A DNA stretch of 64,000 nucleotides from Alphaproteobacteria bacterium. GTDB lineage: Bacteria; Pseudomonadota; Alphaproteobacteria; JASGCL01. Position 1 is the first letter of the stretch, and every line of letters starts with the position of its first letter. Below the pieces are notes generated by a model. It was not told the origin of the DNA, did not search any database, and saw only the letters and a list, made by a program, of their open reading frames with translations. The stretch is taken from contig CBDHFN010000003.1 of NCBI GenBank assembly GCA_965262605.1, forward strand, positions 1,312,930 to 1,376,929, given 5' to 3'. Shown here piece by piece: positions 51,309 through 53,478 of this stretch. Made by a program: the position numbers and the translations under genes.

Positions 51309-51710
51309 ATGAATGACAATCAAAAAGTCAATAATTATCAAATGCTAGGTAAAGTTGAGAAATTCGTAGAACGAATTAAGCAAGACCCAAATTTTCTTGA
51401 AAATGCAAAATCAAACCCAAAAATCTTAGCCGATGAATTTGGTTTTGTCGTTCCCGAAGGTATTAAAGTAGAATTTGTGCAAAACACTGATGAAGTTATC
51501 CATTTTATCATTCCAATTGACGCGAACAGCGAATTATCCGATGAATTATTAATGGGGCTTAACGCCGCAAAAGGTGGCTCAGCAAGCTCAGCAGGTTCAG
51601 TCGGCACAGCAGGTTCAATGTATTGCGTTAGCACAAGCCCTTCATGCGTTGGCACTGCAAGCACCATTGGTTCAGCGAGTTCAGCTGGTTCTGGTGGCAC
51701 CGCAAGCTAA
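51309..51710 (+). CDS. NHLP-leader RiPP precursor 1 (proteusin type)
   Basis: Leader DPNF....SNPK.L..EFG..VPEGIKVEFVQNTDEVIHFIIP....ELSDELL; 46-aa Ser/Ala/Gly/Thr-rich core. Confidence 0.9.
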   Translation: MNDNQKVNNYQMLGKVEKFVERIKQDPNFLENAKSNPKILADEFGFVVPEGIKVEFVQNTDEVIHFIIPIDANSELSDELLMGLNAAKGGSASSAGSVGTAGSMYCVSTSPSCVGTASTIGSASSAGSGGTAS

Positions 51711-51739
51711 TAATTAACATTACCAAAAAGGAAAATAAA

Positions 51740-52123
51740 ATGAACATAAAAGATTTAAATCAACAATTAAACACTGGTTTTGACAATTTAAACCAATTGA
51801 TGAAAGATAAAAGCGAAGTCGCAAAATTAAGGGCAAACCCATTGCAATATTTCAAAGACAACGATATGTTGCCCGATGCCTCCAAAGAATATGAAGTATT
51901 TTTTAATACTGATAATGTTTGGTATGTGGTTTTCCCAGCTAATGATAGCACAGAAATTTCTGATGAAGCTTTGTCAAATATTGCGGCAGCAAAATCATCG
52001 GCTAGCGTATCATCTGTGGGCACTGCGTCAACAGCAGGCACAGCAAGTAGCTTTCCTTCATGCGTTAGCTCGGCTGGTTCGGTTGGTTCTGTCTCTTCTG
52101 GTGGCTCAGCGTCCAGTAAATAA
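51740..52123 (+). CDS. NHLP-leader RiPP precursor 2 (proteusin type)
   Basis: ATG at 51740 after AAGGA; leader LRANPL.YF..NTDNVWYVVFP....EISDEALSNIAAA; 43-aa Ser/Ala/Gly/Val/Thr core. Confidence 0.88.
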   Translation: MNIKDLNQQLNTGFDNLNQLMKDKSEVAKLRANPLQYFKDNDMLPDASKEYEVFFNTDNVWYVVFPANDSTEISDEALSNIAAAKSSASVSSVGTASTAGTASSFPSCVSSAGSVGSVSSGGSASSK

Positions 52124-53478
52124 TGACATTAAAGGCGAACGCCAAAGTTTTAGTTGAAAGACTAATTGCAGATTCTGATTTTCGGCAAAAAATTAGCAAG
52201 AATGCTCAGCAAACATTAGATGAATATAATATTCACCTTAGTGCCGAGCAGTCTTGCCGATATTGGAATTTATCAATTGGCGAATCGCATTTAATAATGG
52301 CGGGTATTGGTATTCGCAACGAAACTGAACAAGCAATTTTTGAAGTTCAAGATAATTTAAATAAAGTATTTACCAAATATTTTGATAAAAATCGCTTAAA
52401 AAGACCCGAATCAGATATTATTGCATGGCGCAAACGAATTGAGTATCGCAATTATTTTATGCACGGGCAGATGCGCACGAAAATGTCCTTATTTTTGCCG
52501 TTTGCGGTTGAATTATCCGATGGTTGTTCGGTTGGGTGCTGGTTTTGCGGTGTTTCTGCCGATGTTCACAAAAAAAATTATCTTGCAAATCAAACAAATA
52601 AGCAAGAATTTGCACAAATAATACAATATTTTGCCGATATTTATCATGATTTAGCCAAAAATGGCTTTTTATATTTTGCGACAGATCCTTTTGATAATCC
52701 AGATTATGAAGTTTTTTCGGATATTTTTTTTGAAATTACGCGCTCAGCACCTGCGATAACAACGGCAATGGCTGAAAAAATGCCCGTTGATAAAATTTTG
52801 AAACTTACCCAAAAAATTCTTGCCCAAGACGCACCATGTATGCGGTTTTCGGTGTTTTCTATTGCGCAATTAAATAAAATATACGATTTATATGGTATTG
52901 AAAATTTGGTGGATATTCCAATTATCCCATTGACTCACGGCTCTTTATTGGGGCTTGCCAATGCTGGCAAAGCCCGAACCCGATTTAATAATAACAAAAA
53001 ACGCGGTGATTTAGAATTAGAAAAATTGCAAAAATTTGAAATAAATCATAATACAATTTGTTGCATTGCGGGTTATTTAGTCAATGCGGCGACCAAAAAA
53101 ATTTCGCTTATTGCCCCCATTGATGCCAATGAAAATTCCCCTGATGGCATTGAATATTTTGCGACAATGCGATATGAAAATATCACACAAATTCAAGAAT
53201 TTATTGCCCAAACTCGTCGCGATTTTATGGCAATTAAGCTTTCATTGCATCATGAATTTCAATTATATGATTATATTAAATGCAAAACCGAAAATAATAT
53301 TGTCAAATGCTATTCAGATTTTCATGAATTAAGGGTATTTGCCCCGAATCTTAACCACGATGAATTATTGAATTTTGTGCAATCATGCCATAAACCCCAA
53401 ATTATGCAAGAAATACACGATAAATTTCATGCGGTTGTTGAGTTTTTATGGCAAAATGGCGCGGTTAAAATTCAATGA
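52123..53478 (+). CDS. Radical SAM RiPP amino-acid epimerase (PoyD/OspD family)
   Basis: ELSDGCSVGCWFCGVSA (CxxxCxxC), AWRKR, FLYFATDPFDNPDYE and TICCIAGYLVN motifs; TAATG-coupled to precursor 2. Confidence 0.88.
   Translation: MTLKANAKVLVERLIADSDFRQKISKNAQQTLDEYNIHLSAEQSCRYWNLSIGESHLIMAGIGIRNETEQAIFEVQDNLNKVFTKYFDKNRLKRPESDIIAWRKRIEYRNYFMHGQMRTKMSLFLPFAVELSDGCSVGCWFCGVSADVHKKNYLANQTNKQEFAQIIQYFADIYHDLAKNGFLYFATDPFDNPDYEVFSDIFFEITRSAPAITTAMAEKMPVDKILKLTQKILAQDAPCMRFSVFSIAQLNKIYDLYGIENLVDIPIIPLTHGSLLGLANAGKARTRFNNNKKRGDLELEKLQKFEINHNTICCIAGYLVNAATKKISLIAPIDANENSPDGIEYFATMRYENITQIQEFIAQTRRDFMAIKLSLHHEFQLYDYIKCKTENNIVKCYSDFHELRVFAPNLNHDELLNFVQSCHKPQIMQEIHDKFHAVVEFLWQNGAVKIQ

Follow-up and report, generated by a model that had tools for sequence, protein, structure and literature searches.

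A precursor-plus-epimerase locus of an alphaproteobacterium, probably a detached module of a dispersed azole-peptide proteusin pathway

Does a compact operon of two peptide precursors and one radical S-adenosylmethionine (SAM) enzyme constitute a complete biosynthetic unit, or is it one piece of a pathway whose other pieces lie elsewhere in the genome? This question is raised by three co-directional genes, preA1, preA2 and a radical SAM gene, that the list of open reading frames (ORFs) places at positions 51309-53478 of the window, by which we mean the whole 64-kb stretch of DNA analysed here (G000:C3:1312930-1376929, on contig C3 of the 2.6-Mb, three-contig assembly G000). In contig coordinates, the three genes span C3:1364238-1366407. 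An earlier sequence-only reading had described these genes as a minimal proteusin-type locus that makes D-amino-acid-rich peptides by epimerisation alone. Our comparisons suggest instead that they are quite probably a detached precursor-plus-epimerase module of a dehydrazole (carnazolamide/nostatin)-type proteusin pathway that is spread over the genome. This interpretation draws on gene content, homology, tree position, the pattern of the core peptides, the presence of Pro only in epimerase-linked cores, and a nearest relative with a dispersed pathway of its own.

The tandem arrangement of two precursors with nitrile hydratase-like leader peptides (NHLP) and a coupled radical SAM gene, as first described, is borne out by the ORFs, by the leader model TIGR03793, and by the overlap of the preA2 stop and the radical SAM start as TAATG, which makes translational coupling plausible. 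TIGR03793 matches preA1 with 42.2 bits (E 5.2e-11) and preA2 with 20.4 bits (E 3.3e-4), against a cut-off of 50.9. The ORF list starts preA2 at 51644, while its likely start is a downstream ATG preceded by the purine-rich run AAAAGGAAAA, which resembles a ribosome-binding site (RBS); on reading the sequence, such RBS-like runs are seen before both precursor genes. When the 23,617 ORFs of G000 were scanned with our own leader hidden Markov model (HMM), exactly five precursors and one leader-only NHLP protein were recovered, preA1, itself among the sequences from which the HMM was built, scoring 128 bits. The three remaining precursors are located on contig C2, and preA1 shares 38-40% identity with them, compared with 31% with its neighbour preA2. 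In alignment A4 the leaders of all five end in Ala-Ala-Lys, where more distant relatives have Gly-Gly-Lys. If cleavage falls behind the Ala-Ala that lines up with the Gly-Gly of these relatives, the two window cores comprise 46 and 43 aa, in keeping with the lengths given before, and they consist almost entirely of Ser, Ala, Gly, Thr and Val (39/46 residues in preA1 and 38/43 in preA2).

In all five G000 cores, X-X-[Ser/Thr/Cys] triplets flank a single central four-residue unit on either side, with 14 of 14 units in phase in preA1, 13 of 13 in preA2, and 11/11, 13/14 and 10/10 in the C2 precursors. These tilings were reached by 0, 3, 14, 0 and 9 of 2000 shuffles, respectively. A one-phase periodicity test that ignores the central shift gave weak results (363 to 2497 of 10,000 shuffles), and it is the model with the four-residue unit that fits. 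By analogy with known systems, this tiling is the pattern of YcaO substrates. Each window core carries one Pro, situated in the central unit, where the three C2 cores carry Leu or Ile. Two database homologues of preA1, P0122 and P0123 (80% and 69% identical, on short contigs), likewise have Ala-Ala-Lys and retain Ser/Thr/Cys at every third core position. They keep 40/45 and 41/45 of the preA1 core residues and 68/88 and 46/83 of the leader residues, and the better conservation of the core argues for selection on the product.

The radical SAM enzyme is a predicted L-to-D peptide epimerase of the PoyD family adjoining NHLP precursors. It matches TIGR04517 (rSAM_PoyD) with 244.3 bits (E 2.3e-72; residues 5-423 against positions 2-412 of the 446 in the model), which is below the curated cut-off of 325 bits; TIGR04517 is nonetheless its sole strong family match, so that the earlier PoyD-family assignment holds with this proviso, and both enzyme motifs quoted at that time are present in the translation. 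The Pfam Radical_SAM model matches residues 130-199 weakly, with 21 bits against a cut-off of 29.5. Cys135, Cys139, Cys142 and 30 further columns that are invariant in alignment A2 (19 sequences) are all kept (33/33), including Cys314, which we take to be the counterpart of the H-donor Cys of PoyD. Among the 120 database matches listed, the best homologues share at most 33% identity with the enzyme, and the functional names are all PoyD-family epimerase, with one entry termed 'hypothetical protein'. A sequence search of the PDB returned no solved relative of the enzyme (best E 0.23, HydE). At its N-terminus, residues 5-43 were matched by NF038399 (E 3.9e-5) and TIGR04509 (E 0.0018), both below the cut-offs, and residues 15-48 of preA1 (window 51351-51452) weakly match positions 3-36 of the PoyD model (E 0.25, below cut-off). 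This likeness between the enzyme N-terminus and the start of an NHLP leader may point to a shared fold for leader-enzyme pairing.

The statement that no other maturase or exporter is adjacent to these genes was confirmed, since BLASTP against all 23,617 G000 ORFs revealed no YcaO, LanM-like, SagB or C39 gene within the 64-kb window. The flanking genes encode a trypsin-like peptidase, a DUF1489 protein, an endonuclease/exonuclease/phosphatase protein, MnmE and others, none of which is a maturase or exporter of RiPPs, peptides made on the ribosome and modified after translation. A genome-wide scan for C39 transporters and other NHLP maturases, which the sequence-only reading had proposed, did locate them in a cluster on C2 (G000:C2:110479-131850), together with a second C39 exporter set on C3. 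The three tandem C2 precursors open this cluster at C2:110479-111696, followed by two LpxO/OlsC-like hydroxylases, an NlpC/P60 protein, an unknown protein, a fused YcaO, a 970-aa DUF4135 LanM-like protein, a second fused YcaO, a SagB dehydrogenase, an NHLP exporter (ABC2, ABC1 with a C39 peptidase, HlyD and TolC) and finally the leader-only gene. Scores over the respective cut-offs were obtained for the two fused YcaO proteins (TIGR03604, 231.6 and 245.9 bits), SagB (141.7 bits) and ABC1 with C39 (861.9 bits), while ABC2 reached 699.4 bits against a cut-off of 709.4. The 970-aa protein matches DUF4135 with 172.6 bits and TIGR03897 with 204.9 bits against a cut-off of 304, aligns with the protein of locus L032 (149 bits, 24% identity), and has no LANC_like match at E <= 0.01.

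The C2 cluster contains no epimerase. According to the same BLASTP search, YcaO, SagB and LanM-like genes occur nowhere in G000 but on C2, and exporter homologues outside C2 are confined to C3:1452330-1457468, beyond the window. As YcaO and SagB are encoded in the genome and absent from the locus, membership of the window genes in such a pathway holds genome-wide and depends on presumed action in trans. Modification of preA1 and preA2 by the C2 enzymes is fairly likely. A complex prediction with the C2 protein YcaO2 (A3) and residues 1-90 of the preA1 leader (A4) scored 0.00, which speaks neither for nor against binding. A second PoyD-like gene, 456 aa in length and 41% identical to the window enzyme, was found at C2:173650-174996 (-), corresponding to L001 1351-2721, with no precursor beside it. 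From their translations, its neighbours are an oligopeptide ABC ATPase-like protein, a secreted protein of no assigned family and a GmhB-like phosphatase.

To place the enzyme among its relatives, one genome per species was scanned; 301 relatives were found, and the work on loci used the best 80 of the 301. Of these 80 loci, 20 encode a homologue of the C2 YcaO no more than 6 kb from their radical SAM gene. SagB and LanM-like genes are also present in 18 of the 20, where the usual order is precursor, YcaO, SagB, radical SAM enzyme, LanM-like protein. In a tree of 82 rows, the 20 YcaO-context enzymes and the two G000 enzymes form one side of a branch with a Shimodaira-Hasegawa-like approximate likelihood ratio test (SH-aLRT) support of 96, the other 60 standing apart, and the G000 pair groups with five proteobacterial YcaO-context enzymes (L023, L024, L025, L027 and L030) at 100. 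A careful tree of 37 rows, with 13 of the 20 YcaO-context enzymes and 22 of the 60 others, gave supports of 97/97 and 100/99 for the same two groupings. The enzymes of L032 (CcaD) and of L092 and L096 (both Nostoc) are on the window enzyme's side of the branch. An apparent fusion of the radical SAM enzyme with SagB in L025, L027 and L030 was dismissed, as these are separate overlapping ORFs that arose from first-start ORF calling in GC-rich DNA.

The record of L023 (G402), which holds the nearest homologue of the window enzyme, is a complete chromosome of 1.83 Mb. It carries YcaO, the radical SAM enzyme and two precursors at 0.45 Mb, between proC and a ribonucleotide reductase gene, a TolC-HlyD-ABC1-ABC2-SagB-SagB array near 0.79 Mb, and a DUF4135 gene alone at 1.44 Mb. 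As the G402 pathway is dispersed too, a minimal-looking locus can be one piece of a multi-locus pathway. L023/G402 belongs to a sponge-associated candidate genus.

Products are known for two members of this branch type. Pei, Zhu and Nair reported the YcaO- and DUF4135-dependent 'dehydrazoles' in 2023 (PMC10676384), and Delawska et al. reported nostatin in 2024 (PMC11583998); since dehydrazole/nostatin-type proteusins have thus been in print since 2023-2024, the kind itself is already known. Locus L032 comes from Chryseobacterium carnipullorum DSM 25581 and has a precursor that agrees with the residue numbering of CcaA, and it links the branch to CHARACTERISED products, while the L092 core is the nostatin A core as printed in PMC11583998. 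According to PMC10676384, public genomes hold more than 50 clusters that combine YcaO with DUF4135. In enzymes of the LanMbC type, a DUF4135 dehydration domain is joined to a cyclase-like domain that lacks zinc ligands. For carnazolamide, PMC10676384 describes a YcaO/dehydrogenase pair that forms eight azoles, the leader-independent enzyme CcaM (DUF4135, LanMbC) that dehydrates only Ser preceding an azole, and the epimerase CcaD, for which no change was reported on unmodified or azole-only peptide and which acts after azoles and dehydroalanine (Dha) have been installed; Pro15 alone is in the D-form. In nostatin A, whose cluster has the same enzyme set, a modified Pro15 is the sole D-residue (PMC11583998). 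The two share a building plan in which the third residue becomes an azole and the Ser preceding it becomes dehydroalanine (PMC10676384, PMC11583998).

The likeness of the G000 genes to the cca cluster begins with an NHLP precursor whose Ser/Thr/Cys-rich core has Pro-Ser-Cys at its centre. Both also encode a fused YcaO, a SagB-type dehydrogenase and a DUF4135 LanM-like protein that apparently lacks a zinc cyclase, and their PoyD-family epimerases fall on one side of the tree. Whereas cca is one cluster, the G000 pathway is split over at least three places; its window cores have 43-46 aa in place of 30, and Gly, not Ser, often stands before the putative azole position, so that fewer Dha residues are to be expected than in carnazolamide. 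Unlike cca, G000 also has a C39 exporter, two hydroxylase-like genes, a second YcaO and a second epimerase. With the nst cluster of Nostoc sp. CCALA 1144, in which the genes run YcaO (NstD), oxidase (NstE), PoyD-like epimerase (NstF) and LanM-like (NstG), it has in common the NHLP precursor and the triplet building blocks, to which nostatin A adds the D-configuration at the central Pro only. In contrast to nst, the pathway in G000 is dispersed and has five precursors, and the B12 radical SAM methyltransferase that nostatin A is described as needing for its isobutyl-Pro was seen neither beside the window locus nor among the annotated C2 ORFs. With respect to the NHLP/NHLM export system (TIGR03796, TIGR03797), C2 has ABC1 with C39, ABC2, HlyD and TolC, and the five precursors share a common leader end, with the differences that Ala-Ala-Lys replaces Gly-Gly-Lys and that the exporter lies away from the window locus.

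These comparisons bear on the alternative that the locus is self-sufficient, in which the enzyme would epimerise several residues of unmodified cores and D/L-mixed peptides would be the end products. The window enzyme shares its TIGR04517 family, the CxxxCxxC motif and NHLP substrates with PoyD, OspD and AerD, the enzymes of polytheonamide, landornamide and aeronamide, which act early and at many sites on unmodified Val/Asn/Gly-rich cores. For the polytheonamide and aeronamide epimerases, such many-site action on unmodified precursors is stated in PMC10676384. A compact, translationally coupled operon with no other maturase in the 64-kb window would suit an enzyme of this habit, and one so divergent could have changed its habit. 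We consider this alternative improbable nevertheless, and do not maintain the terms 'minimal locus' and 'epimerisation alone', because the cores show the strict X-X-[S/T/C] periodicity of azole substrates and belong to the same family as the precursors of the C2 cluster with its YcaO, SagB, LanM-like and exporter genes. The enzyme, moreover, groups with the YcaO-context epimerases, where all 20 other members have a YcaO gene within 6 kb, and apart from the 60 sampled enzymes of loci without YcaO, whose precursors mostly have Val/Asn/Gly-rich cores. Neither a leader peptidase nor an exporter is present at the locus, while the NHLP exporter stands in the C2 cluster. The expectation of 'D-amino-acid-rich' peptides is likewise not supported, as each of the two characterised members is described as making a single D-Pro, and CcaD as inactive on the unmodified peptide (PMC10676384, PMC11583998). 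Where the sequence-only reading had considered that identical loci might already have a characterised product, related loci do have known products, but these loci are not identical to the present one.

For the detached module, we infer chemical steps, action in trans and Pro specificity as follows. preA1 and preA2 would be made with an NHLP leader of ~85 aa, and the fused YcaO and SagB of C2 would form azol(in)es from the Ser, Thr or Cys that ends each core triplet, after which the DUF4135 LanM-like enzyme would dehydrate those Ser residues that precede azoles. The window radical SAM enzyme would then take the C-alpha hydrogen from the one Pro of the core, within its central Pro-Ser-Cys, and hydrogen would be returned from the opposite face to give D-Pro. 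Finally, the leader would be cut at Ala-Ala-Lys and the product exported via the NHLP-type C39 ABC/ABC/HlyD/TolC system of C2. The LanMbC dehydratase is leader-independent according to PMC10676384, which would make action in trans easy. The predicted products are peptides of 43-46 residues that would bear up to 13-14 azoles, often with Gly in front of the azole; they would differ from the two characterised members and exceed them in length.

We lean slightly towards the view that the window enzyme is specific for Pro. A precursor with x-Pro-[Ser/Thr]-[Cys/Thr] in its core is present in 17 of the 20 YcaO-context loci, whereas in the other 60 loci this motif was found once, in a leader, and in no core. 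Strong YcaO2 homologues occur in 8 of 401 sampled genomes of the class, G000 included. One of these genomes, G277 (a single contig), has a C2-like cluster with an exporter, two YcaO genes, SagB, a leader-only gene and a LanM-like gene, and both of its cores are Pro-less. No TIGR04517 match was obtained in G277 and four other genomes with a YcaO2 homologue (0/5), while the same search recovered both G000 copies. Pro-bearing cores thus go with an epimerase and Pro-less cores without one, which is a lead and not a statistic, because the numbers are small and the lineages related. An azole pathway in which the epimerase or its orphan paralogue is not Pro-specific, and acts on other or several residues, perhaps of the Pro-less C2 precursors and possibly at an early stage, appears unlikely to us. 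The two paralogues are only 41% identical and one has no adjoining precursor, the G000 cores exceed the characterised ones in length and Gly content, the L023 epimerase sits with YcaO only, and L060 and L074 combine YcaO and an epimerase with other cores that lack the x-P-[ST]-[CT] unit, all of which would fit a broader specificity; set against this are the single central Pro kept in both window cores and in 17 of the 20 related loci, the Pro-less cores without any epimerase in G277, and the D-Pro that is the only epimerised residue described for both characterised enzymes (PMC10676384 and PMC11583998).

Several observations weigh against the reading of the window genes as a detached module with a Pro-specific epimerase, and the exceptions L060 and L074 belong among them, as does L025, where no precursor was found, and the small sample behind the Pro-epimerase link. 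The window enzyme is the most divergent of its branch, along which TIGR04517 scores fall from 452.7 bits (Nostoc enzyme) through 376.1 (CcaD, L032), 315-324 (L023, L024 and L030) and 283.6 (the G000 paralogue) to the 244.3 of the window enzyme, and as it is only 26% identical to CcaD, its specificity and timing may differ. Both trees are unrooted and were built from the best 80 of the 301 loci, PoyD and OspD not being among their rows; the G000 pair has a long stem (1.57-1.59), long end branches and a composition that deviates from the alignment, and the label 'YcaO context' was set from the same loci as the tree. Because the L023 locus pairs its epimerase with YcaO only, dependence on Dha need not be general. 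A tight, translationally coupled three-gene operon would also suit a self-contained unit, and neither of the leaders nor the enzyme reaches its curated NCBIfam cut-off. The distance between the window locus and the C2 cluster is at least ~0.46 Mb if C3 and C2 adjoin, and the two may lie on different replicons. The orphan epimerase paralogue, the hydroxylase-like genes and the leader-only protein have no place in this account, and no expression data were found. Among the sequencing runs listed as containing this sequence there is no RNA run; the 4 that contain it stem from a single study and are probably its source. It is very improbable that we are looking at the productless remains of a cluster that was duplicated or rearranged and is now decaying, since its separation from the rest of the pathway, the split C39 ABC gene in the second NHLP-type exporter on C3 and the failure to find the locus in 4 genomes of the same family are outweighed by three intact ORFs with RBS-like sites and coupling, the 33/33 invariant A2 columns with all three cluster cysteines, and the 80% and 69% identical preA1 homologues that conserve the core better than the leader.

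Relative to the pathways in print, what is new here is that precursors and epimerase form a detached module, that precursors with Pro stand at the epimerase locus and those without it in the main cluster, and that the cores are long and Gly-rich. Our literature searches listed no description of a detached precursor-epimerase module or of a Pro-epimerase correlation, although the supplements of PMC10676384 may show similar loci. If the reading as a detached module is right, a tempting mis-annotation is corrected, in that a minimal-looking precursor-plus-epimerase operon can be a fragment of a multi-locus pathway, and genome mining based on clusters would miss or misread such dispersed loci. Dehydrazole-type pathways would be dispersed in at least two small proteobacterial genomes, which fits the reported leader-independence of LanMbC, and genomic support is added for the narrow Pro specificity reported for the carnazolamide and nostatin A epimerases. 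As nostatin A is a nanomolar cytostatic, new scaffolds of the class are of some practical interest.

Two more speculative extensions may be mentioned. In the first, which we regard as unlikely, the pathway would be modular: shared, partly leader-independent machinery for azoles, dehydration and export on one contig would serve all five precursors, the epimerase gene would travel with the Pro-hinge precursors, and the orphan epimerase might target Leu/Ile at the same position in the Pro-less ones. If true, all five polyazole peptides (35-46 residues) would receive a central D-residue, which would be the first non-Pro specificity in this branch, and the system would show in nature how a RiPP pathway can work in trans from dispersed loci. 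The second is bolder and weaker. The reported target of nostatin A is the eukaryotic V-ATPase (bioRxiv 10.64898/2026.03.27.714872), and by analogy a eukaryotic host or grazer could be what these products act on.

Table 1. Features of the precursor-plus-epimerase locus, in window coordinates.
Feature	Position	Strand	Evidence or remark
Putative Shine-Dalgarno-like site, AAGGAG	51297..51302	+	6 nt 5' of the preA1 start codon; direct sequence reading
preA1, NHLP-leader precursor, 133 aa	51309..51710	+	ORF and TIGR03793
preA1 leader, up to Ala-Ala	51309-51569	+	
preA1 core, 46 aa including Lys	51570-51707	+	
preA1 sole core Pro codon	51639-51641	+	Within the central Pro-Ser-Cys unit
preA2, NHLP-leader precursor, 127 aa	51740..52123	+	TIGR03793, alignments A1 and A4
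preA2 leader	51740-51991	+	
preA2 core, 43 aa	51992-52120	+	
preA2 sole core Pro codon	52055-52057	+	Within the Phe-Pro-Ser-Cys unit
Ala-Ala-Lys leader-core junctions	51561-51572 and 51983-51994	+	Alignment A4
Radical SAM enzyme, 451 aa, divergent PoyD-family member of the CcaD/NstF-type branch	52123..53478	+	TIGR04517, trees
Enzyme residues 5-43, resembling an NHLP-type leader start	52135..52251	+	NF038399 and TIGR04509 matches
CxxxCxxC radical SAM cluster motif, Cys135/Cys139/Cys142	52525..52548	+	Columns invariant in A2

With respect to the host, the assignment to an alphaproteobacterium agrees with the MnmE homologues: 7 of the 8 organism-named entries among the 120 listed are alphaproteobacterial, the best non-self identity being 52%. 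A comparison of synteny with the 4 genomes of the same family was dropped, as these have no DUF1489 match and their MnmE proteins are 40-42% identical, which is too distant. A search for TLC (PF03219) as a hint of an intracellular lifestyle gave no match anywhere, controls included, and is uninformative. The G+C content across the window ranges from 30 to 43%. Within 50700-53800, the numbers of promoter-like sites (15 vs 12.1 +/- 4.1 in shuffles) and terminator-like sites (2 vs 3.2 +/- 1.9 in shuffles) are likewise uninformative, and repeats within 51000-53600 are limited to short, chance-like pairs. An Rfam scan of the whole window gave nothing at the locus, the sole match at the gathering threshold being a tRNA gene at 18039-18111 (+).

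The gene at 49991-50779 (+), two genes upstream of the locus and in the same orientation, encodes a serine peptidase of the trypsin family that has a hydrophobic segment at its N-terminus; on reading its sequence, the residue six before the catalytic Ser is not Asp. That it might serve as a leader peptidase acting at the junction Lys is only a thought. The second NHLP-type exporter set, at C3:1452330-1458800 (L017 7343-13800), lies ~87 kb downstream of the locus and comprises ABC1 with C39, ABC2 and an HlyD-like protein, its ABC1 being split into ORFs of 577 and 123 aa, which may be due to a frameshift or an assembly error. The leader-only gene of the C2 cluster, at C2:131620-131850 (-) (L015 11621-11851), encodes an NHLP leader domain of ~76 aa that stands alone and lacks a core. 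Such a gene also occurs at L114 2754-3032 (G277) and L117 8612-8872 (G213), so that in three genomes it stands at the edge of an exporter/YcaO cluster; a role as chaperone, decoy or regulator is among the possibilities. Elsewhere in the window, a TrmH/RlmB-like methyltransferase ORF at 56995-58629 (-) has, from its translation, an N-terminal extension of ~250 residues made up of low-complexity repeats rich in Arg, Gly, Ser and Asp.

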